From: Calditrichia bacterium | GTDB lineage: Bacteria; Calditrichota; Calditrichia; RBG-13-44-9; J075 | Length of the DNA: 64,000 nt | NCBI GenBank assembly: GCA_028284905.1 | Contig: JANQQU010000003.1 | Coordinates: 1 to 64,000 of the forward strand | Direction of reading: 5' to 3' | The notes under the pieces: model-generated | The model's database searches: none | What the model was told of the DNA's origin: nothing | What the model saw: only the letters and a program-made list of their open reading frames with translations | Made by a program: the position numbers and the translations under genes | Part shown: piece after piece, positions 5,155-55,073 of the stretch | Layout: each line of letters opens with the position of its first letter | Position numbering within the stretch: position 1 is the stretch's first letter

Positions 5155-5405
5155 GCTTTTTCTCCCAGGTATTCAATTTCAAAATCTTCGATAACAGTAT
5201 TCGCTAATAATTTACGGCTGGCTTCTTCTACCATATTATGAATGGTTTCCGGCGTGCCGTCGTCCGGCACTTCCAGTTCGATCAGCTTACCGACCCGCAC
5301 ATCGTTAATACCATCGAATCCCAGGTTTTGCAGCGCATGGTGCACAGCTTTTCCCTGCGGATCGAGAATGCTCTTTTTTAATCTGATTTTTACAGCAACT
5401 TTCAT
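5151..5405 (-). CDS. purS: Phosphoribosylformylglycinamidine synthase subunit PurS
   Basis: 84 aa. Typical PurS size and sequence; sits directly upstream of purQ. Confidence 0.85.
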
Positions 5406-9103: not shown

Positions 9104-10389
9104 CTTCTTTCTGGCCTCGATTCCAAAGTGACTTGTATTTGAAATTTTCTTTCTTCCCGCACAACGTCAAACGTAATGACGCTACCGACCTTTAAATCCA
9201 GATCGCGCAGGTTCTTGATTAAATTATCAACATTCGTGACGGATTTGCCTTCCAGGGCGACAATAATATCATATTCGCGCAGACCGGCTTTATAGGCTGG
9301 GCCACGGCGATCAATTTCCGTAATGATCGCTCCCTGACGTACCGATAGTCCCAGTGCATTAACAATCCGGTTGTTCAGGCTTTGCGCATAGATGATGCCA
9401 TGCCAATATTCCCGGTCGATGCCCCCTTTTTCACGAATTTCCGCAACAACCTCTTCGATGTGCTGCATGGGAATGGCAAACCCGATCCCGATATTGCCTT
9501 CGTTCCCCTGGCTACCGGTGTAAATGAAGGTGTTCATTCCAATCACCTGACCCAGCGCATTTACCAGCGGGCCACCACTATTCCCATGGTTGATAGCGGC
9601 ATCCGTTTGGATCATATCCTGGTAAAGGCGCTCTTCCCGGGTGCGGCCCCAGTCGCGGTCCAGCGCACTGATGACCCCAACGGTTACCGTTGGCTGGTCG
9701 TTAAGTGCTACCAGGCCGAAGGGATTTCCCAGGGCAATGACCCATTCGCCAACCATTAAATCATCGGAGCGTCCCAATTCGAGGTAAGGATATTCCCCCG
9801 GTTCAATAATTTTTAGCAGGGCGATATCGCTAAGCCGGTCACTGCCTTCTACCTGGGCAGTTTTATGGCGGCCGTCCGGCAGGGTAATAACGATCTCTGT
9901 GGCATCTTCCACCACGTGTTCATTGGTAATGATATATCCATCTTTCGAAATCAGAAAACCGGAGCCCAACGACTGGATTTCCTGTTTGTACCAACGATTT
10001 CGATACAGTTCCGGAAACAGTTCCGCAAAAGGATTGCGCTCCCGATACCGTTTAACCTGGGTGACGTTAATGCCCACAACCCCGGGGCTGGCTTTTGCCA
10101 CTGCCCGGGTAATAGCGGTTTGCCGGGATGTATAAATGCTGTCCGTAATAACATGCTTTGTTTCCGTTTGCGCATAAGCGTTGTTGATGAGCGAAGAATC
10201 GCTGCTGCTCCCACTGTCACTACCGGATTGGCAAGCAGCGCCGCCAACAAAAAAATACGCCATCAGCAAACCGCTAATGATGGCGAAACGGCTACGGCCC
10301 TGAAAAGTCAATCTTAACAACTTCATTATCTTCGACGGTATGTTCATAAACCTGAATTGCGGCGCTAAAAAACGGTTGTTTTCTTTCAT
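9100..10389 (-). CDS. HtrA/DegP-family periplasmic serine protease with PDZ domain
   Basis: 429 aa. Signal/TM segment, trypsin-like core (TNEHVV, GNSGGPL) and a C-terminal PDZ. Overlaps purB by 4 nt. Confidence 0.85.
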   Translation of the reverse strand: MKENNRFLAPQFRFMNIPSKIMKLLRLTFQGRSRFAIISGLLMAYFFVGGAACQSGSDSGSSSDSSLINNAYAQTETKHVITDSIYTSRQTAITRAVAKASPGVVGINVTQVKRYRERNPFAELFPELYRNRWYKQEIQSLGSGFLISKDGYIITNEHVVEDATEIVITLPDGRHKTAQVEGSDRLSDIALLKIIEPGEYPYLELGRSDDLMVGEWVIALGNPFGLVALNDQPTVTVGVISALDRDWGRTREERLYQDMIQTDAAINHGNSGGPLVNALGQVIGMNTFIYTGSQGNEGNIGIGFAIPMQHIEEVVAEIREKGGIDREYWHGIIYAQSLNNRIVNALGLSVRQGAIITEIDRRGPAYKAGLREYDIIVALEGKSVTNVDNLIKNLRDLDLKVGSVITFDVVREERKFQIQVTLESRPERR

Positions 10390-10422: not shown

Positions 10423-11157
10423 TTAATTATAGTCTACTTTCTCCAGCACCAATCCCTTCGCGGGTGCAGCCGCACCGGCGGCTTTTCGGTTGCGGGAAGC
10501 AAATATTTTTTCAAACTCGGCCTCGGAGGACTTCCCCCGGGCAACGTCGATAATCGTACCGACAATCGTCCGGACCATGCCGTGCAGGAAGCGGTTAGCG
10601 CCGACCCGGTAAATCCAGACATTTTCTTCCTGTCGCCAAAACGACTCATAAACAATACAGCGCTTGTGCGAGCTTTGCACCTGCACACGGGAGAAAGCGC
10701 CAAAATCATGATCTCCCAACAATTTTTCCGCGAGCGGATTTAACAACGAAGTATCGAGCTTTTGAAACAACTGCCAACAGAAAGCGCGCATTAAAGCAGT
10801 TCTCTCCGTGGAGATGTAATACTGATAGGTTCGCCGGGTCGCATCGAACCGGGCATTAAACTCCGGTGCAACAACCGCCGCGGATCTCACCGCAATATCG
10901 TCCGGCAAGTGGTGATTCAGCCCCATCTCGATGCTGTGCATCGGTAAATCCTTTTCAAGCTGAAAGTTCACGACCTGACCACGGGCATGAACACCGGTAT
11001 CGGTACGACCAGCAGCGGTAACTCTTAAGCGTTCCCCGCTTAGCTTATAAATCGCCTCTTCCAGACACCCCTGGACGGTGGTCAGATTATCCTGATACTG
11101 CCAGCCATGGTATGCCGTCCCTTCATACTCGACCACTACTTTAATATTCCGTTTCAT
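10423..11157 (-). CDS. truA: tRNA pseudouridine(38-40) synthase
   Basis: 244 aa. YEGTAYHGWQ...RTDTGVHA TruA motifs. Confidence 0.9.
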   Translation of the reverse strand: MKRNIKVVVEYEGTAYHGWQYQDNLTTVQGCLEEAIYKLSGERLRVTAAGRTDTGVHARGQVVNFQLEKDLPMHSIEMGLNHHLPDDIAVRSAAVVAPEFNARFDATRRTYQYYISTERTALMRAFCWQLFQKLDTSLLNPLAEKLLGDHDFGAFSRVQVQSSHKRCIVYESFWRQEENVWIYRVGANRFLHGMVRTIVGTIIDVARGKSSEAEFEKIFASRNRKAAGAAAPAKGLVLEKVDYN

Positions 11158-20884: not shown

Positions 20885-20913
20885 TATATATAAATTGTGT
20901 ATGGGTAATTCAT

Positions 20914-20941
20914 GTAGAGACAGTTCATGAACTGTCTCTAC
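20914..20941. repeat. 28-bp perfect palindrome GTAGAGACAGTTCATGAACTGTCTCTAC (family copy 1)
   Basis: Perfect self-complementarity. Lies between convergent genes (DUF4249 / pspA), so it may act as a bidirectional terminator hairpin. Confidence 0.6.
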
Positions 20942-20969
20942 AATGTTTTGTTAATTAAACTTCGGAGCG

Positions 20970-21704
20970 TTATTCGCTTTTTGCGGTATCATCACTACCG
21001 GCGTTCAACCCCATTTTTGCCTTCAGGGCGGCCAGTGAGTCGGATGCGGCAACAGCAGTGTCATCTGCAAGCGCGCGTTCGATTTCTTCGTCGGTGCTCA
21101 ATGAAGCATCACTCATTTCGCCATAAGCTTCTGCCAGTGCTTCTTCTTCCGTTACCTTGTCCTTCATTTTTTCCAGCATAGCGACTGTACTGGAAGAATC
21201 TACCTGGGACATCTGCTTGTTAATCTTTTTCATAGATTCAGCAGTGCGTGCCCGGGCACGTAAGGTAATCAGTTCATTTTCATATTTGGTGATAGCAGAC
21301 TTAAGCTTATTGACCTTGCTCTGCAGCTGGTCAGCCAATTTTTGCTGATGGGAATGGTTGGTCAAAAACTCCTTGGAGCGGTTTTCTGCTTCTTCTTTGC
21401 GGGTTAAAGATTCCATCGCCAGGCGATCGGCATCGGCCATTTCCATCGTGCCCTTCTCGGCTTTCTGCAGTAACAGCATAGCTTTTCTTTCATAATCAAG
21501 GGCGCGTTTTTTCTGGTCTTCGCCATCTTTACGCATGCGGATAGAAATTGCTTTTACTTCTGCCAGACTTTTCATGGCACCGGCGAGGTCTTTTTTAAGA
21601 TCGCGAATGCCCTGCTCAGTCATTTTGATCGGATCTTCCAGTTTATCGACAACGGAATTTGCTTCTGCTTTGGTGATTCGAAAAATTCTCGAAAAGATAC
21701 CCAT
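20970..21704 (-). CDS. pspA: PspA/IM30/Vipp1-family membrane-stress protein (copy 1)
   Basis: 244 aa all-helical. MGIFSRIFRITKAEANSVVDKLEDPIKMTEQGIRDLKKDL is the canonical PspA N-terminus. Confidence 0.9.
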   Translation of the reverse strand: MGIFSRIFRITKAEANSVVDKLEDPIKMTEQGIRDLKKDLAGAMKSLAEVKAISIRMRKDGEDQKKRALDYERKAMLLLQKAEKGTMEMADADRLAMESLTRKEEAENRSKEFLTNHSHQQKLADQLQSKVNKLKSAITKYENELITLRARARTAESMKKINKQMSQVDSSSTVAMLEKMKDKVTEEEALAEAYGEMSDASLSTDEEIERALADDTAVAASDSLAALKAKMGLNAGSDDTAKSE

Positions 21705-21740
21705 GTTCTATACTCCTTTCATCAAGGTTTATCGTCGTTT

Positions 21741-22133
21741 TTAGTGTTTAATATATTCCAGCAATTCATTACCATTTTCGGCCAGGGCCAGGGAAAGGGC
21801 CTGTACCGATGCTTCCAGTTCGTTGTGATCGAGATTTTCCAACTGCAGCGTATCGCGGAAAATAACGTATTTTGCTTCATCATCAAGAACGAAAGCGCCA
21901 TGAACCATCGAACGGTTCATCTGTAACAAACGCTTGAAGAAAGTGTCAGTATCATCCGGAACCGGCATAATGCGCTGTTCCAGAACCACGATCGGATCTT
22001 CACAATCGATTACCAAGTTATTGATACCATCATCGGGATCTTGAACGACGACCAACTCTTCGCCTTCATCTTCATAAGAGATTTTCATGTTCATGTCCAA
22101 GAGATAACTTTTTACCATTTCATACTTACTCAT
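21741..22133 (-). CDS. YbjN-like (T3SS-chaperone-like) domain protein, PspA-associated
   Basis: 130 aa acidic protein. Pattern compatible with the YbjN/putative sensory transduction regulator fold. Directly upstream of pspA in the same orientation. Confidence 0.5.
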   Translation of the reverse strand: MSKYEMVKSYLLDMNMKISYEDEGEELVVVQDPDDGINNLVIDCEDPIVVLEQRIMPVPDDTDTFFKRLLQMNRSMVHGAFVLDDEAKYVIFRDTLQLENLDHNELEASVQALSLALAENGNELLEYIKH

Positions 22134-22197
22134 TTTTTCCTCCTTTGATAATAATATGGTTCGGTAAAAGGGTTATAATGTTTGTTGATTTTTGAAA

Positions 22198-22560
22198 TTA
22201 TTTACTCAAATGTTTTTGTAACTGATCATAGGCATAATTCAACTGCTGCACCAATTCGTTGGCGGTTTTTTGTTTTACGCTATCGCTGCTGTGTTTGTCA
22301 GGGTGATACTGCTTTAGCAGCCGCTTCCAGGCTTTCGTAACCGTTTCCAGATCCGCGCCATAGGGCAATTCCAGGTTGGCATAATATTGGGCGATTTTCG
22401 GATCCAGGCCGCTGTCAGCGCTGCCGCCATGGTTGCTGCCGGTTTCCCATTTGTTTCGTTTTTTCTGACGATTGCTGCTGTCGACCGTTGGCGTATCATC
22501 ATTCCGTCCGGCGTTGAAATTTGCCCGGAGAATATTATACACACGAGAGAATATTGACAT
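22198..22560 (-). CDS. J-domain protein (DnaJ-like co-chaperone, no Zn-finger/CTD)
   Basis: C-terminal J domain with HPD motif (KAWKRLLKQYHPDKH...LNYAYDQL). N-terminus is low complexity. Confidence 0.8.
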   Translation of the reverse strand: MSIFSRVYNILRANFNAGRNDDTPTVDSSNRQKKRNKWETGSNHGGSADSGLDPKIAQYYANLELPYGADLETVTKAWKRLLKQYHPDKHSSDSVKQKTANELVQQLNYAYDQLQKHLSK

Positions 22561-22653
22561 TTTGTATCGCCTTTCCAGCGCTTTTAAATCGAATATTTAT
22601 TTAGTTTTAATTTACTACTGAAATCCTTTTCAAGAACCATGCCGAATTTTGGT

Positions 22654-23697
22654 TCAAACCGTCACTTCCGGCTGGCCGTGGGCAATCAGGATCAGGTGAT
22701 CCTCATCGACGAGTTTATAGTCCGTTGCCGGATTGGAAATCACCCGTTCGCTTTGCTCCTTGTAAATGGCTAAAACAATACTGTTGTATTCCTGTTTCAT
22801 CGCGGTAAAAACTTCGATAAATGTTTTTTCCTGCAGATGCTCCGGCACGGGAATCCGGTAAAAATCATTACCGGTACCGGCACTCAGCAATTCGGAAACC
22901 ACTTTCGAGATACCATGATTCAATGCCGTGCGGGAAATCAGGTGACTACTGAATTCGTTGGTAACAATAATTTCATCCGCACGCGCCCGTTGGCAATGGC
23001 GCACATTGCGCTCATCAACCAGCTCGACAATGGTATACGCACCGCGGTTCATGCCTTCTACCGTAAGGGTTGAGAGCACCACCTGGGCATCGCGGGCATT
23101 ATCATCCAGTTTATCATCACCGAGAATAATGACCGTATTGGCCGAAGCGAGATGCGCCCGCTGCATATTTTCCTCATTAACATCCCCGTTAATGAAAAAG
23201 AGATTTTCGTCCTCTACCGGCTTTTCGTCGATTTTGGCAATCAGCACAATTGGCGACGTTGCGGTGCGGCTGTCTGATCGTAAATCGCGGAGAATTTCCC
23301 GGGCCCGGTAATTCCATTCGCAAATGATGATGTGATCGGTTAACGTAAATGATCCCATACCACGGTTTTCCTTCAGTTTTCTTTCCACAAAAACACTGGC
23401 AATTGTTGCTGTAAACATACCGAGAATGCCGATTCCCAGTAACATTGTAATCGCCCCTATCGTCCTACCACCCAGGGTTTGCGGGGTAATGTCGCCATAT
23501 CCCACAGTGGTCATGGTAACAATACTCCACCAGAATGCGTTTGTCCAGCTGACATCTTTCTCAAAAATGACCAGGCCGACAGTGCTGGTGACGAGCAAGG
23601 CAAGTATGATGAACAGTATCCGATGAATATTTTCCCGGATAATGAAATAGTTAATCTGATAAAGAACCTTACCGAGTTTTTCTTTTATTTTCACCAA
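22654..23697 (-). CDS. Potassium channel (2TM + pore loop TVGYGD) with cytoplasmic RCK/TrkA domain
   Basis: K+ selectivity filter TTVGYGDITP. RCK_N (IIICEWNYRAREIL...) and RCK_C-like region. Confidence 0.85.
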   Translation of the reverse strand: MVKIKEKLGKVLYQINYFIIRENIHRILFIILALLVTSTVGLVIFEKDVSWTNAFWWSIVTMTTVGYGDITPQTLGGRTIGAITMLLGIGILGMFTATIASVFVERKLKENRGMGSFTLTDHIIICEWNYRAREILRDLRSDSRTATSPIVLIAKIDEKPVEDENLFFINGDVNEENMQRAHLASANTVIILGDDKLDDNARDAQVVLSTLTVEGMNRGAYTIVELVDERNVRHCQRARADEIIVTNEFSSHLISRTALNHGISKVVSELLSAGTGNDFYRIPVPEHLQEKTFIEVFTAMKQEYNSIVLAIYKEQSERVISNPATDYKLVDEDHLILIAHGQPEVTV

Positions 23698-23768
23698 TCG
23701 TCTCTGCCTTAACTGCTGCGAGTATTTTTGAATCTCGCTGTCAACGTATTCATCATTGTTCTATTAAA

Positions 23769-25358
23769 TCAATAAATTTCCCAGTCACCGGCCTTGTAAT
23801 AATGAAACAGCGCCAGCTCCAGCTCCTGGTTAATTTTAATATCCTCAAAACCAGCCAATTCATTTTTTCCGAAATGCAGCATACTGATCATGGCGTCATT
23901 ATTCAGGAAGCGCGTCTCCAAATTTTCAAATTGCAAATTGCCCAACCGTTTTTTCAATGCATCCGGAGAATTTGCCTTTGCGTTTACACCAAGCACCCAG
24001 CCCCATTCTCCCAAAGTCGGAATATGATTATGATAGGGCTGCGTAGTAAGGCCGCTCGCTTCCATTGTTTTCAATATACAGAGAAATGCTTCCCGGGAAA
24101 AGAACGGACTGCCGGCCTGGGTGACCATCACGCCTCCCTTGGAAAGATGCCGTTGCGCCAGCTGATAAAACTCCCGGCTGTAAAGCCGCGCCAGTTCGAT
24201 GGTTTTCGGATCCGGTAAGTCGATAATGATCACATCATATAATTCCGGATCTTCTTTCAGGAAAGCGTAGGCGTCTGTGTTCAGGATGTCTACCCGTTCA
24301 TCTTTTAGGGCGCCTTTATTGACCTGCTTAAATAATGGGTGATTAAGTCCCAGCTCGGTGACTGCCGGATCCAGATCGACCAGGCGAACTAAGGTCACTT
24401 CCGGATATTTGAGAATTTCCCGAACGGCCATACCATCGCCGCCGCCCAGCACCAACACGCGCTCGCGGGAAACACTGGCGCTCATTGCCGGATGCACCAG
24501 CGGCTCGTGGTAGCGTTCTTCATCATAGCTGCTGAACTGTTCGTTCCCATTCAAATAGAGCCAAAAATTGTCTTTCCATTGCGTCAGCACGATACGCTGA
24601 TACGGCGTTTGTGCCTGGTAAATGACCCGGTCTACGTATTTCTGCTGCTCCCCATACAGCACAATCGGTTGCGCGGTAATCATTAACGTGATCAATAAAA
24701 GCGGCACAATGACAAAGCCGGCAGTAAGTGACTTCCGATATTCCAAAGCATCGCGATGTCGATAAAAAAGCGCAGCGGCAACGGCAAAATTAACCATTCC
24801 CAGCAGGATTGGGGTATAGGTCAATCCCAGATAAGGCAGTGCGATAAAGGCAAAGGTCAAACCGCCAAACAAAGCACCGTAATAGTCTTTTTCCATTACC
24901 GAGCTAATATTAATACGCAAATCCTCAAAGAACTGATTCAGGCGGGTAGCGATAGGAATTTCCAACCCGATTAACAGGCCGATGGAAAATGACATCGGAT
25001 AAATGATCAGACCGAGCATGGAGACATAAATCGAGAGGAAATAGGTTGTAATCGCACTGACCGCACATAGCACGGAAAGCATTAACTCCAGGGTGATGAA
25101 TGCATCCAGCATGGCAGAACGAATGTATTTACTGAGGCGACTCCCGACGCCCATGGCAAAGAGCATGATGCTAATCGTCAGCGTCCACTGCAGGACCGAA
25201 TTGCCAAGCAGGTAACTGGCCAGGGTGGACATCACATACTCGGCGACGATGCCGGCCAGTCCGGTGGCGAAGATACAGGCTTTTAGCAGCCAGTTGCCGT
25301 TGATGGACTGTGGCTGGCTGCTACTGGTTTCGTTGATGTTGTGTTCTGCTGTGCTCAC
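23769..25358 (-). CDS. Membrane-anchored polyamine aminopropyltransferase (spermidine/spermine synthase-like) with N-terminal multi-TM domain
   Basis: About 7 N-terminal TM helices. C-terminal SpeE fold: VLVLGGGDGMAVREILKYPEVTLVRLVDLDPAV...VIIIDLPDP. Confidence 0.85.
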   Translation of the reverse strand: MSTAEHNINETSSSQPQSINGNWLLKACIFATGLAGIVAEYVMSTLASYLLGNSVLQWTLTISIMLFAMGVGSRLSKYIRSAMLDAFITLELMLSVLCAVSAITTYFLSIYVSMLGLIIYPMSFSIGLLIGLEIPIATRLNQFFEDLRINISSVMEKDYYGALFGGLTFAFIALPYLGLTYTPILLGMVNFAVAAALFYRHRDALEYRKSLTAGFVIVPLLLITLMITAQPIVLYGEQQKYVDRVIYQAQTPYQRIVLTQWKDNFWLYLNGNEQFSSYDEERYHEPLVHPAMSASVSRERVLVLGGGDGMAVREILKYPEVTLVRLVDLDPAVTELGLNHPLFKQVNKGALKDERVDILNTDAYAFLKEDPELYDVIIIDLPDPKTIELARLYSREFYQLAQRHLSKGGVMVTQAGSPFFSREAFLCILKTMEASGLTTQPYHNHIPTLGEWGWVLGVNAKANSPDALKKRLGNLQFENLETRFLNNDAMISMLHFGKNELAGFEDIKINQELELALFHYYKAGDWEIY

Positions 25359-25471
25359 TTTTTGCCTTCTACTTCCCGGAATGAATCCCGGGATTAAGTT
25401 CGAACGTCCGATGAATCGGACTTTTAATCAATCTTTGATTTACAGCTACTGCCACTGTTTACTTCTACTTG

Positions 25472-26317
25472 TCAAACGACCCAGCCTACCAGGAAGGAGG
25501 CGCCGATGTAGGAGAATGCTTCGATGGCGCCGGCGCCGATATTCGGGCGTTCCTGATTCACCAGCTCATCCGTCAGGCGCTCGCCCGGCAGCAACACTTT
25601 ATCGGTGATGTAGCGAAGAATCGGTAAGAGTAACAGGCCGAATGCCACGAAACCGGCAAAGGTCGACAAATTGTATTCCCAGGAAACAAAGTCCCCGGCA
25701 GCACCGATGCGGATAATATTGCCGATTGCTATTAGCACGCCGGCAAATGCGACGCCCACAGCTGCATTGTCTTTTTCGATTTCCGCATGCAGGTCGAATG
25801 GCAGGATCTTATTATAGACGATACCGGCAACAATCAGCACTGCTTGTCCGAGAATCCAGAAAGTCGCGGCTGTCCCCCAATCGCCTTCACCGGACATTGC
25901 GCCAAAAATCACCATACCAATCGCAATATGATTGGCCGCTTCGACGATACCGGTGCCAGGGTTTTGATCGTCGATAATCTCTTTAACATTATCGAAACCG
26001 CGGAGGATAATTTTATCATTGATATAAATGGAAAAGTTCAGCAGGATAATCGAAATAACACCGTAGAAAAAGATATCGATCAAATCCACCATCCACCCTT
26101 CGGATTCGCTGGAAAGCACGCCCCCGAGCGCGATAACCAGCCCGAAATAATAACCGGCAACCGCCAGGGCCAGGGCAAAATTGTCTTTCTTAACCAATTC
26201 TTCCCGCACATTAATGCGGCGATTGCTGAAATCGTAGAAAACTTTTCCCAGGTAGAATAAAATGAAAACTGCAACTAGGTAGATTAACGCTGTTACTATT
26301 TGGTCGAGTGTCATCAC
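25472..26317 (-). CDS. DUF350-family membrane protein (two DUF350 repeats; YjfL-like)
   Basis: 281 aa with two ~130-aa internal repeats of 4 TM segments with Gly-rich helices, typical of DUF350. Confidence 0.65.
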   Translation of the reverse strand: MMTLDQIVTALIYLVAVFILFYLGKVFYDFSNRRINVREELVKKDNFALALAVAGYYFGLVIALGGVLSSESEGWMVDLIDIFFYGVISIILLNFSIYINDKIILRGFDNVKEIIDDQNPGTGIVEAANHIAIGMVIFGAMSGEGDWGTAATFWILGQAVLIVAGIVYNKILPFDLHAEIEKDNAAVGVAFAGVLIAIGNIIRIGAAGDFVSWEYNLSTFAGFVAFGLLLLPILRYITDKVLLPGERLTDELVNQERPNIGAGAIEAFSYIGASFLVGWVV

Positions 26318-26391
26318 CTCTCCTTTATTAAATCGATTGCCGCCTGTCGCTTACCACTGTCAATTGTTAATCATACTTCAAATTTATTCGC

Positions 26392-27114
26392 TTATTTACC
26401 GAAGCCACCACTTCGGCTGCGCGACCGGCTCATATTACTGCGGCGGGTCCGATTCTTCACTTTCTCGGAAAAGGAACGCTTTCGTTGTGCTTCCCGAACC
26501 TGGCGGCGCTGGAAAAAGTTTGGATTGGATTTTTTGGTGTAATTACCATAGGTGCCGTATTGATTTTTGTTGCCGAAATAAGGCTTTCCGCGGTTGCGGT
26601 AGTTGCGGTAGCTGTCGTAGTCGTTACGATAGACCGGGCGGTCAAACATGCCAAATACTGTTTGTAGCATCGCATATTTACCGTAAAATTCCCAGAAAGA
26701 AGTGCCGTTGGAATCAGTGCGCCATTGACCATATTGCGGGTTGCCAACATACTGATAGCCAGGAGGATATTGATTGTTATCGACATCACCATCTGGCGAT
26801 TTGGACGCCAGGGTCATGCCAAGATATTGATCGTACTTTTCATATTCCCGCTTGTCAACCCGCTCCCAGTCGGAAACTTCACTCCGGTAAACCATGCTAT
26901 CGCTGCCGCTTCCCCGTTCACCATAGATCGTTTTATAGCGATGATAGTATTCCGGAAAGAAATTCCCGTCCTGCTTCATATCCTCCAGAACAATCGAATA
27001 TTCCGGATACTGCTCCATACTGGATTGCAGCTTGCTAATCGGCGAAGATTTGTTACAGGCGGTAAGAAATATGCCCGCAAACAATAAGGTAAGAATGATA
27101 TAATGTCGCCTCAC
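26392..27114 (-). CDS. Lipoprotein, Tyr/Asn/Gly/Arg-rich with basic Ser/Arg tail (function unknown; occupies the position of DUF4247/YjfM-type partners)
   Basis: The ORF-track start (27219) overlaps DUF4178. A GTG at 27112-27114 preceded by AGGAGA gives VRRHYIILTLLFAGIFLTAC, a lipoprotein signal with lipobox. Confidence 0.45.
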   Translation of the reverse strand: MRRHYIILTLLFAGIFLTACNKSSPISKLQSSMEQYPEYSIVLEDMKQDGNFFPEYYHRYKTIYGERGSGSDSMVYRSEVSDWERVDKREYEKYDQYLGMTLASKSPDGDVDNNQYPPGYQYVGNPQYGQWRTDSNGTSFWEFYGKYAMLQTVFGMFDRPVYRNDYDSYRNYRNRGKPYFGNKNQYGTYGNYTKKSNPNFFQRRQVREAQRKRSFSEKVKNRTRRSNMSRSRSRSGGFGK

Positions 27115-27187
27115 AGTAATTCTCCTGATTTTGTCCCAAATGCGTGATTTGATGTGTCTCCGATCTCCATACCGCTCCGCCTTGCTA

Positions 27188-27733
27188 TTACTGTCCCGGT
27201 AAAATGTTACTAAACTCATATTCCTCTACATACCTGCCCCGGGCAGCTTCAAATTCTTCCTCTCCCCATTGCTCGATGGCAATAAAGTTCTCCTCATCGT
27301 CATCAATGAATTCCCATTGAATAAAGCCGATTTTCGGTCCCTTGCCACCTTTCATAAAATAGGCGGATCCGGATTCATCTAAATAGTAGGAGGTTGCTTC
27401 CACGACAATCTCATTGGGTGGATCATCATTGTCCATAATGTAGCGATGGATATTGCCATCGATTTTCCCGATGGGCATTTTTTTACTGATGCTCCAATAG
27501 ACCTCATCATCTTCCGTGCGTTCCAAAAAAATTTTTTCCCGGCCAGTAGTCAATTCCCACTCATCTCCATAAAGTCCATCCCCGTAATCGTAGCGGTTAC
27601 AGGCGGTTACTTCCCAGGTTTTCAGGTCATAATCGACGTAATAACCGACCTTCATCTTCACCAGTTCGAGATCCGCTAATGGATCAAAATCATCATTCTC
27701 GTTTTTGTCTTTGAACATGTCAAAAATGCCCAT
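27188..27733 (-). CDS. DUF4178-family protein
   Basis: 181 aa, acidic, Trp/Tyr-rich. Size, composition and neighbourhood (DUF350 + membrane SpeE) match the conserved DUF4178 association. Confidence 0.55.
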   Translation of the reverse strand: MGIFDMFKDKNENDDFDPLADLELVKMKVGYYVDYDLKTWEVTACNRYDYGDGLYGDEWELTTGREKIFLERTEDDEVYWSISKKMPIGKIDGNIHRYIMDNDDPPNEIVVEATSYYLDESGSAYFMKGGKGPKIGFIQWEFIDDDEENFIAIEQWGEEEFEAARGRYVEEYEFSNILPGQ

Positions 27734-27810
27734 TTTTCCTCCGGTTTACTGCTCAAAAATTCAATCTGTTACAATATTTTTAATATAGATTTTCTAATTC
27801 TGTGAATCAA

Positions 27811-27851
27811 GGTGACTGCTAAAAAACGGGTGGCCGTTTTCAGGGCCACCC
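27811..27851. terminator. Bidirectional intrinsic terminator (AACGGGTGGCC-gttttcag-GGCCACCCGTT flanked by A-run and T-run)
   Basis: Perfect 11-bp stem. TTGGTTTT follows on plus and TTTT on minus. Lies downstream of flotillin (minus strand). Confidence 0.7.
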
Positions 27852-27872
27852 GTTTTGGTTTTCACCATGGTA

Positions 27873-29396
27873 TTACTTACTATCAGCGCTATCAATCGCT
27901 TTATCAGGGTTTTCATCTTGATCAGATTGGGTGTGTCCATTTTGCGGCGGATAAGGTAATTCCTGCTTCTGGAACTGACTGAGGATGTTCACACCAGTGG
28001 CGTTTTCAATTTGCTCCGAAAGGGAGATCAGCGCGCTGGGGAGCTGATTGATAAATCGGGAAACCCCGTTGCCGTTGCCATTTCCGGAATCGATGACGCT
28101 CACCTTGTCGATAGTTACCTTGCCAACCGTATCGGTCAACTGCTGCATAATGTCCGGCAACATGTTGAGCATAAAGACTTTCTCGCCATCGCCATTAGCA
28201 TTCTGATAAACCGAGATCATCTCTGCCAATACTTCCAGGTTTGCTTTACCTTTTTCCAGGATCGGTGCGGCTTCACCCTGGGCAGCAAGTTCTTTCGCTT
28301 GCTTATCGGCGCGGGCCGGCTCGATTATGTCAGCCATCAAGCGCTTCTTCTGTAAGAGAATCCGCTCTTCTTCCATTTCCTGCTCGTATTTCGCCTTGGC
28401 TTTTTCGCCGGCAACTTCTGCTTCTCTTTCCTTAATAATCGCTTCCCGTTCCAGCTCTGCTTTCTTAATACGCAAGTTATTCTCTTCCTGCTCAATACTC
28501 TGCTGAGCAACCGCATGAGAGACTTCAACTTCCTGGCGGGCTTTAATTTGTGCAGTTTTGATTTCCTGCTCGGCCTGTGCTTTCGCGATCTCCGCCATTT
28601 GCTGGGCATGTGCTTCGGAAACTTCTACGCCTTGATGCGCATTAATTTGCGCGGTCTTAATTTCCTGCTCCGCCTTTGCTTTCGCGATTTCCGCCTGCTG
28701 ACGGGAAAGTGCTTCTGCTTCTTCCGCCTCTGCGGTTCGTAATGCTTCCGCTTTCCGCGCTTCGGCAATAACTTCCGCAGTTTTCCGGCGGCCGATCGAA
28801 TCCAGATATCCGGCATCGTCGGAAACATTTTGGATTTTCAGAGTATCTAACTGCAGACCGAGCTGGTCCAGATCGTTGTCCGCTTCGCCAATCAGGCTTT
28901 GAGCAAATTTCAAGCGATCTTCATTAACTTCTTCCGGTGTTAATGTTGCCAGAACACCTCTCAGGTTTCCTTCCAATGTATCCTTGGCAATCTTGTGAAT
29001 ATCGTTAAACGGCTTTCCTAAGAAACGCTCAACAGCATTACCGAAAGAAGGTTCATTGGAATTAATTTTAACATTGGCGATTGCCTCCACACTCAGTGGA
29101 ATGCCACCTTTGGAATATGCATTCTTCACTGATAATTCGATCGGAATTGTTTCCAGGGACATCCGGGCGGCTCTCTCCACAACCGGCCAACGGATTGATC
29201 TGCCTCCACTAATTAAACGATATCCGACCACTGAGCCATCCGGCATTTTCCGTTTTTTACCGGAAATAACGATGACTTCATTGGGATGACAAACCATCAA
29301 CAGTTTGTTAATCATCATTACTACGACAATGGCGATAATCCCCAGAATAAATATTCCGCCCGCAAAAAAATTTTCAACGCCCATAATACCCTCCAA
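27873..29396 (-). CDS. Flotillin / SPFH (band 7) family protein, YqiK-like
   Basis: 507 aa. N-terminal TM, SPFH domain, long Ala/Glu-rich coiled region with an internal 33-aa tandem duplication. Confidence 0.9.
   Translation of the reverse strand: MEGIMGVENFFAGGIFILGIIAIVVVMMINKLLMVCHPNEVIVISGKKRKMPDGSVVGYRLISGGRSIRWPVVERAARMSLETIPIELSVKNAYSKGGIPLSVEAIANVKINSNEPSFGNAVERFLGKPFNDIHKIAKDTLEGNLRGVLATLTPEEVNEDRLKFAQSLIGEADNDLDQLGLQLDTLKIQNVSDDAGYLDSIGRRKTAEVIAEARKAEALRTAEAEEAEALSRQQAEIAKAKAEQEIKTAQINAHQGVEVSEAHAQQMAEIAKAQAEQEIKTAQIKARQEVEVSHAVAQQSIEQEENNLRIKKAELEREAIIKEREAEVAGEKAKAKYEQEMEEERILLQKKRLMADIIEPARADKQAKELAAQGEAAPILEKGKANLEVLAEMISVYQNANGDGEKVFMLNMLPDIMQQLTDTVGKVTIDKVSVIDSGNGNGNGVSRFINQLPSALISLSEQIENATGVNILSQFQKQELPYPPQNGHTQSDQDENPDKAIDSADSK
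28522..28720. repeat. ~99-bp tandem duplication (2 units, ~80% identity) inside the flotillin coiled-coil region
   Basis: Units ...CTTTAATTTGTGCAGTTTTGATTTCCTGCTCGGCCTGTGCTTTCGCGATCTCCGCC... and ...CATTAATTTGCGCGGTCTTAATTTCCTGCTCCGCCTTTGCTTTCGCGATTTCCGCC... Confidence 0.6.
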
Positions 29397-29482
29397 TTAT
29401 GTTTGGTTACTATTTTATATTATTCAATGCATCTGTATCGCTTTTCCAGCGAACATTCACTGCTGTGGGCATCCTGCACCGA

Positions 29483-30130
29483 TTAGACGAATTCCTTTTC
29501 CACCACATATGCTGTATTGTCTTTCACGCGTAACACAATCACCGTTTCTCCCTCCTGAAAATTATCCCGGTCTGCTTCATCAGCGGTAATTGCCAACAGT
29601 TGAAACTTGCGTCCATTGGCATTGAGGGTAATTTTTCCCTTGTTTTGCCGCGATAAATTGATGGTAACATTTGCCGGCATACCGGTTAATGAATTTAGGT
29701 TGAGAGAGCTGTCCACTTCGTTGCGAACGAGGTGATTGAGTGTTTTGTGCATTAGAAAACTGGCAATACCTCCCATTACGATAGCACTTGGGAGGGTAAT
29801 AAAGGCAGGAATGTTAAGTAGATTAAAAATGGTGCCAGTCATTCCGAAAAAAGCGACAAAGAAGATTGCATTGCGAAAGCTGAGAAACTTCGCGCCTTCC
29901 ACCAGGCCTTCGCTATCGGCAGCATCCCCCGCGGCGTCACTGTCTACGTCGACGTCCGCATCTGCATCAATGTCCATATCGCTCTGAAAATCTACATCGC
30001 CGTCGACATCGACATCCATTTCAACATCCGCATCCACATCAACATCCGCGTCTGTATCTCCACCAAAGAATAAAGAGATCGCAATAAATATTCCCCCTAC
30101 TATGAAACAGGCGAGATAAATTTTAAACAT
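29483..30130 (-). CDS. NfeD-like / YqiJ-like membrane protein (flotillin partner) with poly-acidic (D-V/A)n linker
   Basis: 215 aa. N-terminal TM, acidic repeat DADVDVDADVEMDVDVDGDVDF...DIDADADVDVDSD, 2 TM, C-terminal OB-fold-like beta domain. Lies immediately downstream of flotillin. Confidence 0.6.
   Translation of the reverse strand: MFKIYLACFIVGGIFIAISLFFGGDTDADVDVDADVEMDVDVDGDVDFQSDMDIDADADVDVDSDAAGDAADSEGLVEGAKFLSFRNAIFFVAFFGMTGTIFNLLNIPAFITLPSAIVMGGIASFLMHKTLNHLVRNEVDSSLNLNSLTGMPANVTINLSRQNKGKITLNANGRKFQLLAITADEADRDNFQEGETVIVLRVKDNTAYVVEKEFV
29935..30065. repeat. Hexanucleotide-periodic GACATC/GACGTC-type repeat encoding the (Asp-Val/Ala)n tract
   Basis: Seen directly as ...GTCGACATCGACATCCATTTCAACATCCGCATCCACATCAACATCCGCGTC... 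Confidence 0.5.
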
Positions 30131-30273
30131 GGCGCGCTCCTCAGTTTGTCATCGGTTCTGTCGATTATTTTTTTAAAAGGTAGAGCCGGGACAGGCGGTC
30201 AACCTGCCCGTGCTCTGGCATACCGGATGGGCACAACCGGTTGCTATCTATGTTAAAGGCATTGGCAATGGGA

Positions 30274-30996
30274 TTAGGAATCTTTCTTCTTGCCGGCTAA
30301 TTTCTTTTTCAACTGTGCTAATGCATCTTCTACGGATTTATCCTTCATTGCCTTATCGAGATCGATTTCTTTCTCTTTATCGGCACTTTCCAGCTTTAGC
30401 AATTCTTCCGATGCTTCCGCTTCTGCTTCCATTTGCAGGATCTTACCTTCGTAGGATTCCAGGGCTTTAATGGAGTCCAGATCACTAATGGAACTGGAAA
30501 TACTTCCCATTGCTTCCCGGGATTTCTTCAGAGCATTCTGGGTGCGCATTTGCGCGTCTGCGGCCAGCTTGCGCCGAATCAATTCTTCTTTCTTCCGCCG
30601 GGCGGTCTGAACCTGATCTTCCAGTTTATCCAGATTTTCCTTCATCTTTTCCGCGAGTGCTGTGGCAGTTTCTATTTCAGTTTCCAGGGCGCTTACCCGG
30701 TTGTCCAGTTCCAGCTTTTTCGTAATAATCTGACGGGCAAATTCCTCGTCGCCGCTCTCCAGGGCTGCTGCTGCCTTTTTCTCCAGCACCTCCGCCTGTC
30801 CACGGGTCATTTCGATTTTCTTCTCCAATTGCTTTTGCTGACCAATCGCTTTCACGGTTTCCCGGCGGAGTTCGATAATGCTTTCTTCCATATCGCGGAT
30901 AAGCTGTTTTACCATTACCTCCGGATCTTCAGCGGCATCCAGCATATGATTCACATTTGCTGAAATCAATTTGGAGATACGTTGTAAGATGTTCAT
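30274..30996 (-). CDS. pspA: PspA/IM30/Vipp1-family membrane-stress protein (copy 2)
   Basis: 240 aa. MNILQRISKLISANVNHMLDAAEDPEVMVKQLIRDMEESI is the canonical PspA N-terminus. Confidence 0.9.
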   Translation of the reverse strand: MNILQRISKLISANVNHMLDAAEDPEVMVKQLIRDMEESIIELRRETVKAIGQQKQLEKKIEMTRGQAEVLEKKAAAALESGDEEFARQIITKKLELDNRVSALETEIETATALAEKMKENLDKLEDQVQTARRKKEELIRRKLAADAQMRTQNALKKSREAMGSISSSISDLDSIKALESYEGKILQMEAEAEASEELLKLESADKEKEIDLDKAMKDKSVEDALAQLKKKLAGKKKDS

Positions 30997-31053
30997 GATA
31001 GAACCTCCATTAAGGATTTGTATTTACTTCGGACAGTCTGTGCTTGTCCCCCG

Positions 31054-31443
31054 TTAAGCCTGCATGATCCGCCGGATGTCTAGCCCTTCCTTATCGAGAG
31101 TGATTAACAAACCGGTCGATGCTTTGCAGTGCTTCAGGTAATTTCTTAATTTCACTTCATCGGTCAGGTTAATTTTTCTGTCCAGGCGGATAAACACCGC
31201 CAGGTCGTCAAAACACAAGAAGTCTTCTGTTACTTCTTTTCCTGATACTGCCGCAACTGCTCTGAGATTTTGAAATTTAACATTCTTCAGTTCGAATTCT
31301 TTCATCAATGCTTTTGCATAACTGCTGTTATTGTTATGCTGGGCGGTGCGATAAAAAGCGCGTTGCGCAGCGCGGATGATTAAAAAGGTTTTGGCCTCCC
31401 AGATGTCGGCCGCTTTGTTTTGATGTTTGCTTGTGTGTACCAT
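31054..31443 (-). CDS. GxxExxY-family (PD-(D/E)XK-like fold) small protein
   Basis: 129 aa. The pattern ...YAKALMKEFELKNVKFQNL...DFLCFDDLAVFIRLD...LRNYLKHCKASTGLLITL matches the GxxExxY architecture. First gene downstream of the sigma-54 promoter. Confidence 0.45.
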   Translation of the reverse strand: MVHTSKHQNKAADIWEAKTFLIIRAAQRAFYRTAQHNNNSSYAKALMKEFELKNVKFQNLRAVAAVSGKEVTEDFLCFDDLAVFIRLDRKINLTDEVKLRNYLKHCKASTGLLITLDKEGLDIRRIMQA

Positions 31444-31535
31444 TGCCCTCTACCCTCGTCAGCACATTAAATCTTCTGACTTTGCCTTCTTTAAGGCTTT
31501 TTCTTTTTCTCTTTTAACTTGCTACTTGTGCTATT

Positions 31536-31552
31536 CGCAACAGGTGTGCCAA
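31536..31552 (-). promoter_or_regulatory. Sigma-54 (RpoN) promoter, -24/-12: TTGGCACACCTGTTGCG
   Basis: Exact TGGCAC-N5-TTGC on the minus strand. Lies ~90 bp upstream of the GxxExxY gene and 0.54 kb upstream of pspA copy 2, and immediately downstream of the pspF-like gene. Confidence 0.7.
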
Positions 31553-31587
31553 ACAAGGGAATGCGGGTTTCAGGGGTTTTTCGGGGG

Positions 31588-31634
31588 AAATTTGGTGGTT
31601 TTTTTCGCCAACTTGGTTTTTTTCACCACCAATT
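31588..31634. promoter_or_regulatory. Inverted repeat AATTTGGTGG-N27(T-rich)-CCACCAATT upstream of the sigma-54 promoter (candidate enhancer/UAS)
   Basis: Arms at 31588-31598 and 31626-31634, lying 40-100 bp upstream of the -24 element. Confidence 0.35.
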
Positions 31635-31644
31635 ATCTGGTGTT

Positions 31645-32619
31645 TTACACCATTAATTCTTCAAGCTTGTATTTCTTATAGAAGTGCCGAAACTGATCGT
31701 AAGTCATTCCGAGCATCTCCGCGGCACTGCGCTGATTGCCTTCGGCTTCTTTCAATGCATTTAGGAGGAGGGTCTTTTCGTAGGCGCGAACTTTCTCGTA
31801 AAAATTTCCGCGAATGGGTTCTACCGAGGTAATTTCCATTGGCAGCTCGCTGGCGTGGATCGTGCCGTCTTCATCATAAAAATAAAGCCGCTCTATCATG
31901 TTTTTTAGTTGGCGGATATTGCCGGGCCAATAATAATTTTTCAGTTCGTTAATGGCCGAGGGCGTAAAGTTTTTTTCATCCAGATTGGGAATTTCCCGAT
32001 GGAGTTTGTCGATGAAATGGGCGATCAGGGCGGGAATGTCCTCCCGACGCTTTCGTAGGGGTGGGAGGGTTAGCTCTGCAAAAGAGAGGCGATCGTAGAG
32101 GTCTTCCAGGAATTCGCCATTTTTCATCATCTTTTCCAGGTCGGCATTTGTCGCGGCGATAATCCGTACATCGACGGTAATCGATTTGGTGCCCCCTAAT
32201 CTTTCGAACTTCTGATATTCAATTACCCGCAGCAACTTCTCCTGCACCGTGCGATTCATGTTCGCCACTTCATCGAGGAACAATGTACCGCCGTCGGCAA
32301 TCTCCAGTTTGCCGGCCTGGGCGTCAACCGCGCCGGTATAAGCCCCTTTCTCCCGGCCAAACATTTCAGCGATGATCAAATCTTCCTGAAAAGCGGCACA
32401 GTTTACAACAATATATGGTGCCTCGCCACGGCCGCTCTCGTTGTGAATGAATTGGGCAAGCAGCTCCTTGCCGGTGCCTCGCTCTCCACGGATCAACATG
32501 GGGCGGGCAATTTTTGCATAAGTAGATGCCTGCTGTAAGACTTTTACATATGCTTCGCTGTTCCCGATGCCAAAAGGAATTTTATTTTCGATTATTTGTT
32601 TTTTCATTTCGCCGGCCAT
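31645..32619 (-). CDS. pspF: PspF-like sigma-54-dependent transcriptional activator (AAA+ domain + C-terminal HTH, no receiver domain)
   Basis: 324 aa. Walker A GERGTGKE, GAFTGA-like loop (GAYTGA), Walker B/R-finger region, C-terminal Fis-type HTH. The receiver-less architecture is typical of PspF. Confidence 0.85.
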   Translation of the reverse strand: MAGEMKKQIIENKIPFGIGNSEAYVKVLQQASTYAKIARPMLIRGERGTGKELLAQFIHNESGRGEAPYIVVNCAAFQEDLIIAEMFGREKGAYTGAVDAQAGKLEIADGGTLFLDEVANMNRTVQEKLLRVIEYQKFERLGGTKSITVDVRIIAATNADLEKMMKNGEFLEDLYDRLSFAELTLPPLRKRREDIPALIAHFIDKLHREIPNLDEKNFTPSAINELKNYYWPGNIRQLKNMIERLYFYDEDGTIHASELPMEITSVEPIRGNFYEKVRAYEKTLLLNALKEAEGNQRSAAEMLGMTYDQFRHFYKKYKLEELMV

Positions 32620-32743
32620 TGGAATTTTATCTTGCTGCTATCTGAGGGTTTCGGACGATTACAATGCCCATACAACGGGCGGTGGACTGGAAAATAGTAA
32701 ACATATGGGAAAAATGAAAGTGCGATGATAATCGATAATCGTA

Positions 32744-32771
32744 GTAGAGACGATTCATGAATCGTCTCTAC
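32744..32771. repeat. 28-bp perfect palindrome GTAGAGACGATTCATGAATCGTCTCTAC (family copy 2)
   Basis: Perfect self-complementarity. Differs from copy 1 (20914-20941) only at two symmetric positions (AG/CT to CG/CG). Confidence 0.6.
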
Positions 32772-32914
32772 TCTACCACAAAGGTTAACCTGACAGCCCT
32801 AAAAATAACCATTGTTCGGAGAAGCAAAATGGAAAATGCCACAAAATGGGTATTTTTTAAGGAGATATCCTTTGTAGATTTCAATATATCTAAAGTTCCG
32901 GATATTGCCGGTCC

Positions 32915-55006: not shown

Positions 55007-55021
55007 AGGACTGTACATAAC

Positions 55022-55049
55022 AAAGGGCGGATAAATTTATCCGCCCTTT
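55022..55049. terminator. Bidirectional terminator palindrome AAAGGGCGGATAAA|TTTATCCGCCCTTT between ppk and hsp20
   Basis: Perfect 14-bp palindrome between convergent genes. Confidence 0.6.
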
Positions 55050-55073
55050 GCAATCACTCGCTGAAAAACCGTT

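Follow-up and report, generated by a model that had tools for sequence, protein, structure and literature searches.

Two short palindromes bracket the psp island of a Calditrichia bacterium, one at each end of a run of genes on the same strand. They lie on contig JANQQU010000003.1, in a stretch of 64 kb that we refer to as the window, and they raise the question of what such elements do there: they could be sites for a dimeric regulator, recombination sites that delimit the island, or REP-like repeats. The initial annotation had left these three readings side by side; only the REP-like one finds support, the core of the palindrome being present in at least 118 loci from many phyla. We consider it very probable that the palindromes are double-foot REPs of the subclass 2.4 TnpA_REP (RAYT group 4) family, and their structure, the dispersal of the family across phyla, its bias towards the 3' ends of genes and its physical link to RAYT-like genes all speak for this identity.

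The 28-mer of copy 1 (20914-20941) reads GTAGAGAC-AG-TTCATGAA-CT-GTCTCTAC and that of copy 2 (32744-32771) reads GTAGAGAC-GA-TTCATGAA-TC-GTCTCTAC; both are fully self-complementary, as had been described at the outset. Two details of that description need correction: copy 2 had been given with CG...CG where the window has GA...TC, and the copies were said to differ at exactly one mirrored pair of positions, while the actual count is three. Two of these pairs lie within the 28-mer (positions 9/20 and 10/19), and the third is the outermost pair (T..A at 20913/20942, A..T at 32743/32772) by which both palindromes extend to a perfect 30 bp, TGTAGAGACAGTTCATGAACTGTCTCTACA at 20913-20942 for the AG..CT variant and AGTAGAGACGATTCATGAATCGTCTCTACT at 32743-32772 for the GA..TC variant, neither of them assigned to a strand. 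All three differences preserve the symmetry. Each copy consists of a 5' GTAG foot (20914-20917 and 32744-32747), a stem of 12-13 bp, a loop of 4 nt (CATG in copy 1) and a 3' CTAC foot (20938-20941 and 32768-32771), and copy 2 is flanked by additional partial feet, GTAG at 32741-32744 and CTAC at 32773-32776. When folded as single-stranded DNA, the hairpin of copy 1 reaches -12.6/-12.4 kcal/mol (z about -5.3) and that of copy 2 -12.4 kcal/mol (z -5.5 to -6.5). On both strands of both copies the stem spans 13 bp and the loop 4 nt, with z ranging from -5.2 to -6.5 overall. A chance origin can be excluded, because none of 100 dinucleotide-preserving shuffles matched the pattern with up to 3 mismatches and because the 64 kb contain GTAGAGAC in these two copies only. 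Nor does the window hold any further GT[AG]G-footed hairpin with a stem of at least 8 bp.

This architecture is that of the double-foot REPs, which have a 5' GT[AG]G, a complementary 3' C[TC]AC, a length of 28 nt, a 12-bp stem and a 4-nt loop (PMC6006769). Near-identical 28-mers are given in Table S1 of the same study, namely GTAGAGACGCACGGCCGTGCGTCTCTAC, GTAGAGACGTTGCATGCAACGTCTCTAC and GTAGGGGCAATTCATGAATTGCCCCTAC under subclass 2.4 and GTAGAGACAGGGCATTGCCCTGTCTCTAC from Emticicia, listed without a subclass (PMC6006769). The GTAGAGAC...GTCTCTAC arms of the window copies also appear in this table, as does their centre TTCATGAA, there for a Chlorobium REP; a difference is that a term search of the table did not return the exact AG..CT and GA..TC variants (PMC6006769). 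The family in the window and subclass 2.4/group 4 have a common host range of Cyanobacteria, Bacteroidetes and scattered phyla (PMC6006769; PMC5581495). A second difference lies in the host, which appears, from the names given to homologues of its PspF, to be of a Calditrichota-like lineage. A further difference is that the window has only two copies in 64 kb, far below classical REP-rich genomes, and no Y1 or RAYT open reading frame; group 4 RAYTs have been reported with low-abundance repeats (RAYT groups: PMC5581495; PMC6006769).

The classical REPs and REPINs of Enterobacteria and Pseudomonas, which belong to subclass 2.2/2.5 RAYTs, resemble the window copies in their GTAG tag and hairpin, in the complementary stem changes between sub-families, and in their location mainly between tandem or convergent genes with occasional in-frame intragenic copies (PMC3733652). 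However, they have an unpaired GTAG foot at one of their ends, their stems are imperfect or bulged, they can number in the hundreds and they are species-specific (PMC3733652), whereas the window family has a GTAG that pairs with CTAC, a palindrome without any interruption at its centre, and a sequence that recurs across phyla. The subterminal hairpins of IS200/IS605 are similar in that a related Y1 HUH enzyme recognises them as single-stranded DNA; those ends flank tnpA/tnpB, and the left differs from the right, whereas the element in the window is a non-coding hairpin of 28-30 bp that stands alone, with no linked transposase in the window.

To follow the family into other genomes, the pattern AGAGAC-NN-TTCATGAA-NN-GTCTCT was used, which leaves out the outer GT..AC. 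The core was found with several copies per genome, reaching at least 6 in, for example, Phormidium R1S1 and Bacteroidales RGIG6723, and its hosts include Cyanobacteria, Bacteroidota, Patescibacteria, Calditrichia, Nitrospinota, Planctomycetota and others. Many scattered copies had been named beforehand as the outcome that would argue for a generic REP element rather than an island-specific function, and across genomes this is the outcome observed. The GT..AC bases, unsought by the pattern, are nonetheless present in 106 of 119 copies, and 114 of the 119 keep the symmetry of the variable pair. The copies are mostly at gene 3' ends: 39 of the 86 intergenic ones lie between convergent and 40 between tandem genes, and only 7 lie in a divergent promoter region, so that the setting of copy 2 is the rarest context of the family. 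The AG..CT variant of copy 1 is also found in four unrelated metagenome contigs. Other family copies lie in frame inside unrelated but real genes (UvrC, a histidine kinase and T9SS tail domains, among others), in agreement with the reported behaviour of REPs (PMC6006769). At one locus (L046) a true IS200/IS605 tnpA is located 134 bp from a family copy.

Several trivial or indirect sources of such a distribution were considered and rejected. A sequencing adaptor or linker came into question through the identity across phyla and because AGAGACAG resembles the Tn5 mosaic end; it is rejected in view of the copies found in complete isolate genomes, their natural variation, and their occurrence in partial arrays and in frame within genes. 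A phage vehicle is rejected on a single match in 2.9 million viral contigs, and a linked protein gene beside the repeat (PD-(D/E)XK_3, transposase or recombinase) on the clustering of 414 neighbouring proteins, which gave no recurrent family adjoining the palindrome. A literature search by sequence string returned primer coincidences only.

In RAYT-like genes the palindrome lies within the gene itself. Subclass-2.4-like RAYT open reading frames were found at only three of the 118 loci (L111, L026 and L048), and each contains the palindrome: in L111 and L048 it is in frame within a complete open reading frame, in L111 between the HuH and Tyr motifs, and in L026 the open reading frame is cut by the end of the locus. 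In-frame copies between HuH and Y within tnpA_REP are a feature that the window family shares with the double-foot REPs (PMC6006769). The RAYT-like sequences linked to the repeat show a match to Pfam Y1_Tnp and the motifs PNHVHGI, FWQSRFYDHIIRN and YI(R/K)xNP, with a match to NCBIfam NF047646 that is below its cut-off; at the level of the family, the palindrome is thus found inside genes with the NH[IFV]H, WQ and YIxNNP motifs of subclass 2.4 tnpA_REP. Sequences of IS200 TnpA and the E. coli RAYT were used as search seeds only, and Pfam confirmed every match. Among the 120 best homologues of the L111 protein, about 50 contain REP-encoded peptides (VETIHELSL, VETRHALSL, RDAINRVST, VGAIHELPL and others), a count to be read with the caveat that the query itself contains VETIHELSL and that a word-based pre-filter favours homologues that share it; the other variants are unaffected. 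Wherever HuH and Tyr could both be placed in one of these peptide-bearing homologues, the peptide is found between the two. The exact 28-mer of copy 2 is itself present, in frame, inside RAYT-like genes of other bacteria (L125-L128); the proteins P0140 and P0177 carry VETIHESSL, and their genes contain this 28-mer.

How such a repeat may have reached the window can be proposed by analogy. TnpA_REP of subclass 2.4 is a Y1 HUH enzyme, a relative of the IS200 transposase, and either strand of the repeat is able to form a hairpin of ~12-13 bp that opens with GTAG as its guide tetranucleotide. On the model of E. coli TnpA_REP, the RAYT would recognise the hairpin and GTAG on single-stranded DNA, and would cut and rejoin beside the hairpin, so that the repeats could spread as non-autonomous elements and come to occupy tolerated sites, here the gaps between genes on either side of a long run of same-strand genes. 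Binding and cleavage of the hairpin by a RAYT are known only for E. coli TnpA_REP, which is of subclass 2.2, and the cutting and moving of repeats by a subclass 2.4 enzyme would follow this borrowed mechanism. We infer that the source genome has, or once had, a cognate RAYT. Because recognition would need the hairpin, the variants that survive should be those with matched changes in both arms, which would explain the symmetric differences between copy 1 and copy 2. The initial annotation had taken these differences as a sign of selection for the hairpin; that part was reasonable, matching a known trait of REPs (PMC3733652), but such selection reflects recognition of the repeat and not a function of the island.

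The surroundings of the two copies are as originally described. Copy 1 lies midway in an 85-bp gap between the convergent DUF4249 (ends 20884) and PspA (ends 20970) genes. Copy 2 lies upstream of two divergent genes: one encodes a PspF-like sigma-54 activator and starts at 32619, 124 bp from the copy, and the other encodes an outer-membrane beta-barrel protein and starts at 32915, 143 bp from it. The position of copy 1 invites the explanation that the palindromes are intrinsic terminators or RNA-stabilising hairpins that evolved locally and are unrelated to mobile repeats. Indeed a simple scan for terminators accepts copy 1, on the + strand only, where its 13-bp stem leads into a ATGTTTTGTT tail, a relative (L121) has a classical bidirectional terminator at the equivalent position, and the preference of the whole family for gene 3' ends, where Rho-independent terminators also place their stem-loops, would fit. 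We nevertheless regard a purely local origin as very unlikely. Local evolution cannot yield an identical or near-identical 28-mer in many phyla and inside RAYT genes; copy 2, upstream of two genes, is not terminator-like; and the canonical terminators of the window (27823-27856 and 55021-55050, for example) differ in having GC-rich stems flanked by A/T runs. Unlike Rho-independent terminators, the palindrome keeps its sequence across phyla, is mostly without a T tract (in copy 1, one of the strands carries a T-rich tail) and is also found within genes and in a divergent promoter region. Rfam gave only noise around copy 1, with all matches far below their gathering scores. A terminator role of copy 1 is compatible with its identity as a REP, as a secondary effect: it may serve as a secondary terminator or 3'-end stabiliser for the TonB-receptor/DUF4249 genes on the + strand.

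The placement of both copies suggests another explanation, in which they are the recombination or transposition ends of a mobile psp island of 11.8 kb, either as Xer/dif-like sites or through excision by a RAYT between REPs. The only two copies in 64 kb fall in neighbouring strand-switch gaps, precisely where one same-strand run begins and where it ends; this would happen by chance with a probability of ~1% with each of the 41 gaps of 60 bp or more taken as equally eligible, and of ~22% with only the 9 strand-switch gaps. The 28-mer also allows the 11-6-11 division of a dif site, and in relatives with a PspF identity of ~77% the island has different neighbours. Against this, the palindrome is missing from the orthologous islands L121-L124, of which L121 and L124 show that the island can be present with no such repeats, and the suggestion that it delimits the island finds no support. 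In a closer relative (L120, ~93% identical in DNA) the copy 2 variant lies at the same place and the contig ends in the repeat; one relative's contig starts in one repeat and, judged by its length, probably ends in the other. Both repeats thus appear to have been kept in place at ~93% identity, with no hint of recent movement. The GC content of the island equals that of its flanks and gives no compositional sign of transfer, and the genes of 16.6-36.8 kb include no recombinase, integrase or Y1 gene. In other genomes, moreover, most copies are single or intragenic rather than paired ends of a cargo; with neither a neighbouring recombinase nor a recurrent family at the 118 loci, the palindrome does not behave as a dif/pdif-like site of a tyrosine recombinase. 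A mobile island with these ends is therefore very improbable. A special form of this idea, in which a RAYT would excise or copy the island between its two REPs as single-stranded DNA, in the manner of IS200/IS605 ends, is one to which we give hardly any credence; if true, a REP-bounded psp island would be the first known case in which cargo genes travel between paired REPs. A metagenome scan with the flotillin-like protein as query found no relatives, and look-ups of three exact protein sequences of the window (PspA, the PspF-like activator and the CesT/YbjN-like protein) gave no record.

Least tenable, and in our estimate extremely unlikely, is the explanation that makes the palindromes operators or enhancers at which a dimeric regulator of the island would bind, such as the PspF-like activator with its Fis-type HTH. 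A homodimer would suit the perfect dyad symmetry, and copy 2 does lie in the divergent promoter region upstream of the PspF-like gene, but copy 1 lies downstream of two convergent genes, where there is nothing to regulate. None of the at least 118 loci in other phyla has a PspA gene near the palindrome, and only one has a sigma-54 activator, a generic one 6 kb away. The only good match to a sigma-54 promoter in the island (TGGCAC-N5-TTGC, about 31536-31551, - strand) is 1.2 kb from copy 2; it sits downstream of pspF, with TGGTG..CACCA inverted repeats upstream of it, and promoter and repeats are kept in the window, in L120 and in L121-L123, whose PspF is 77% identical and which have no palindrome, while in L124 the conserved promoter was not found. 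Judged by sequence, this region is a better candidate for the target of PspF than the palindrome. The upstream activating sequence of a bEBP is expected 80-150 bp upstream of a sigma-54 promoter and conserved together with the regulon, and copy 2 does not have this character. An island-specific operator was therefore rejected after the cross-genome scan and the comparison of orthologous islands.

The palindromes are thus very probably ordinary copies of a known family of small selfish hairpin repeats, and not a psp-specific signal. For psp biology this has little consequence, other than that an annotation of them as psp operators or as boundaries of the island should be avoided. Beyond this locus, a perfect GTAG...CTAC palindrome of 28-30 bp in a Bacteroidota-like, cyanobacterial or candidate-phylum genome is most likely a REP of RAYT group 4. 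Such REPs break k-mer assemblies, as in the relative's contig that is bounded by repeats, and those that lie in frame in real genes add peptides to them, VETFHETSL being one. One 28-mer is near-identical across phyla, while the RAYT proteins linked to it share only ~45-50% identity, and this poses a modest question of how the repeats are maintained or transferred.

Both palindromes lie at the positions the initial annotation gave them and are perfectly self-complementary over 28 bp: copy 1, GTAGAGACAGTTCATGAACTGTCTCTAC, at 20914-20941, and copy 2, GTAGAGACGATTCATGAATCGTCTCTAC, at 32744-32771. Each gains one further base pair to become a 30-bp palindrome (20913-20942, T..A, and 32743-32772, A..T). 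Copy 2 had been given as CG..CG, which the window sequence corrects to GA..TC, and as the extra outer pair also differs, the copies are distinguished over the 30-bp extent at three mirrored pairs, not at the single one claimed, with symmetry kept at all of them. No pattern match with up to three mismatches arose in 100 shuffles of the window, and the octamer GTAGAGAC has no further occurrence in the 64 kb. Each copy can fold on either strand into a hairpin with a 13-bp stem and a 4-nt loop (-12.4 to -12.6 kcal/mol as DNA, z about -5 to -6). Copy 2 has partial extra feet at 32741-32744 and 32773-32776 (GTAG running into TAGAGAC on the left, GTCTCTAC into TCTAC on the right), which place a second GTAG/CTAC on either side, at offsets of 3 nt and 5 nt.

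The gene context was described correctly: copy 1 sits in an 85-bp gap where the second PspA gene and a DUF4249 gene converge, copy 2 in the 295 bp that separate pspF from a divergent outer-membrane beta-barrel gene. Pfam scans place a run of about 15 minus-strand genes between them, which includes, in order, a PspF-like sigma-54 activator (31645-32619), a PD-(D/E)XK_3 protein (31054-31443), the first PspA, a flotillin-like protein, DUF4178, DUF350, a spermine-synthase-like protein, a K+ channel, a DnaJ-domain protein, a CesT/YbjN-like protein and the second PspA (20970-21704). Two further hairpins in the window, a perfect 30-bp palindrome CAAAGGGCGGATAAATTTATCCGCCCTTTG in the 67 bp that two convergent genes leave free (55021-55050) and a GC-rich hairpin with flanking A and T runs after the flotillin-like gene (27823-27856), resemble ordinary bidirectional terminators and are unlike the two REP copies.

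A scan of one genome per species with the pattern AGAGAC-NN-TTCATGAA-NN-GTCTCT found at least 118 loci; many scattered copies are what the initial annotation had said would argue for a generic REP element, and they occur across genomes at loci without PspA genes. Hosts of the matches listed include many cyanobacteria, rumen Bacteroidales, Saprospiraceae, Calditrichia, Patescibacteria, Nitrospinota, Planctomycetales, Thermodesulfobacteriota, Neomarinimicrobiota and some Gammaproteobacteria MAGs, frequently with several copies per genome, and the motif is essentially absent from phage contigs. Among these matches, flanking GT..AC, which lies outside the search pattern and completes GTAG...CTAC, is present in 106 of 119 copies, and 114 of 119 show mirror symmetry at the two variable positions (GT/AC, AA/TT, GA/TC, CA/TG, AT/AT); the AG/CT variant of copy 1 also occurs in four unrelated metagenome contigs. 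Of the gene pairs around the intergenic copies among them, 39 are convergent, 40 tandem and only 7 divergent, and no protein family recurs among the 414 neighbour proteins. A PspA gene was found at none of these loci, and an unrelated sigma-54 activator at one, 6 kb away. The family is wider than the scan pattern: among the listed loci, arms GTAGAGACG...CGTCTCTAC enclose variable interiors, among them GCAAAATTTTGC, GCGATTAATCGC and GTTTCCCGAAAC, and half-unit tandem arrays are present at some. In L042, one of the scanned loci, such an array (2469-2590, e.g. six TGACTTGTAGAGACGTTTCA) abuts a full palindrome, with similar cases at L097 (7102-7160), L032 (4801-4912), L048 (1150-1240) and L014 (6549-6640); these may have been left by repeated cutting and rejoining, or may stem from slippage at the centre of the hairpin. 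At L071, a Microcoleus MAG contig, the flanks of the REP (centre about 1939-1968) are long mutual inverted copies, so that the same 353-aa gene appears on each side; the cause is either an artefact of assembly or an inverted duplication centred on the hairpin.

A search for Y1 transposases among the listed loci led to a 211-aa RAYT-like protein in L111 (HuH motif PNHVHGI, Tyr region RFYDHIIRN), whose gene contains the palindrome in frame, encoding ...VVETIHELSLQ...; the palindrome also lies within RAYT-like ORFs of L026 and L048. About 50 of the best 120 homologues of the L111 protein carry a REP-encoded nonapeptide, situated between HuH and Tyr wherever both motifs were located: VETIHELSL, its count inflated because the query itself carried it, VETRHALSL, VETRLIASL, VETQNFASL, VGAIHELPL, and RDAINRVST, which comes from a different reading frame. 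Two homologues, P0140 and P0177, carry VETIHESSL, and the exact 28-mer of copy 2 stands in their genes (L125-L128). This matches exactly the account of subclass 2.4 TnpA_REP, equivalent to RAYT group 4 of Bertels, in Quentin et al. 2018 (PMC6006769), which gives the motifs NH[IFV]H, WQ and YIxNNP, includes 'double foot' REPs with GT[AG]G at the 5' and C[TC]AC at the 3' end, and reports as unique to this subclass that REPs are inserted in frame into tnpA_REP itself, in the stretch from HuH to Y. Table S1 of that paper holds the subclass 2.4 28-mers GTAGAGACGCACGGCCGTGCGTCTCTAC (Chloroflexus), GTAGAGACGTTGCATGCAACGTCTCTAC (Cyanothece) and GTAGGGGCAATTCATGAATTGCCCCTAC (Chlorobium), and a similar Emticicia REP without a subclass. 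Copies 1 and 2 are further members of this known kind of REP, and the first of the readings offered initially, a REP-like element, is right given the dispersal and the RAYT link.

Read directly, TTCATGAA variants have one stop-free frame, the others hitting TAG or TGA, so that among the listed loci all intragenic copies read VET(F/I)HE(T/L)SL. In-frame insertions (VETFHETSL or VETIHELSL) were seen in genes for UvrC, a Ser/Thr kinase-GUN4 protein, a TPP enzyme, a PAS histidine kinase (inside HATPase_c), TerB and T9SS C-terminal sorting domains; the host genes are at L034 6061-7377, L070 4846-7380, L081 4666-6072, L094 1517-3283, L059 802-2643, L007 1472-3205 and L112 30-1094. Published reports, including PMC6006769, likewise describe in-frame intragenic REPs.

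On the plus strand, copy 1 qualifies as a terminator by a simple test, and we speculate that it may terminate or stabilise the TonB-receptor/DUF4249 transcript; copy 2 does not qualify. There is also a small possibility that the pairing of the copies at the island ends is meaningful: their placement in adjacent strand-switch gaps has a chance of about 1% when each of the 41 gaps of 60 bp or more is counted as a possible site, and of about 22% when the count is confined to the 9 strand-switch gaps, but the GC content of the island equals that of its flanks, no recombinase or RAYT gene is nearby in the window, and relatives with a PspF about 77% identical (L121-L124) share the island architecture without any palindrome of this type. 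The suggested island-delimiting recombination site is not supported on the same grounds, and the suggested island-specific operator is rejected in view of the dispersed loci and the palindrome-free islands.

In L121 a classical bidirectional terminator occupies the place that copy 1 has in the window. L124 carries an unrelated family of 40-46-bp perfect palindromes (AAATCCCCCCTCTATCTCCCCCC followed by GGGGGGAGATAGAGGGGGGATTT) at 5235-5280 and 11001-11040, one directly 3' of its pspF gene. The relative L120 (Logan contig SRR23272279_31396; PspF 98% and DNA about 93% identical) has its position 1 inside copy 2, which is of the GA..TC variant there too, and from its size (12,010 bp) and alignment offsets its far end would fall near window position 20916, inside copy 1. 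A perfect 30-bp palindrome is expected to break k=31 assembly, and such assemblies seem to have been broken here at both island borders, the copy 1 end being predicted. L120 also differs by a polymorphic insertion between its spermine-synthase-like and K+-channel genes; it is about 170 bp long (9020-9189, against window 23737-23766) and looks MITE-like, with terminal inverted repeats CTCGTTCCCAAA ... TTTGGGAACGAG.

A better candidate than the palindrome for control of the island lies just 3' of the PspF-like gene, where a predicted minus-strand sigma-54 promoter, TGGCACACCTGTTGC (TGGCAC-N5-TTGC, 31537-31551), follows inverted repeats at about 31592-31652 (TGGTGTAAAACACCA, which runs across the stop codon of pspF, and TTGGTGGTG...CCACCAA). 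Both the promoter and the TGGTG..CACCA-type (TGGYG..CRCCA) repeats are kept in the window, L120 and L121-L123, the promoter not being found in L124; the true PspF-dependent control region of the island is probably here. In the window and in L120 the PD-(D/E)XK_3 gene separates this promoter from the first PspA gene; with other small genes at its position in the 77%-identity relatives, it may be a small inserted gene.

According to Bertels et al. 2017, group 4 RAYTs are common in Cyanobacteria, Chlorobia and Caldilineae, occur in 17 bacterial classes and go with only moderately repeated 16-mers, which fits the few copies in the window. E. coli TnpA_REP recognises the REP hairpin together with a 5' GTAG on single-stranded DNA; by analogy, a subclass 2.4 enzyme would recognise and process the repeats described here. 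Under such hairpin recognition, variants would persist only with a joint change in both arms. Di Nocera et al. describe the same property, REP sub-families featuring 'alternative complementary stem residues' (PMC3733652).
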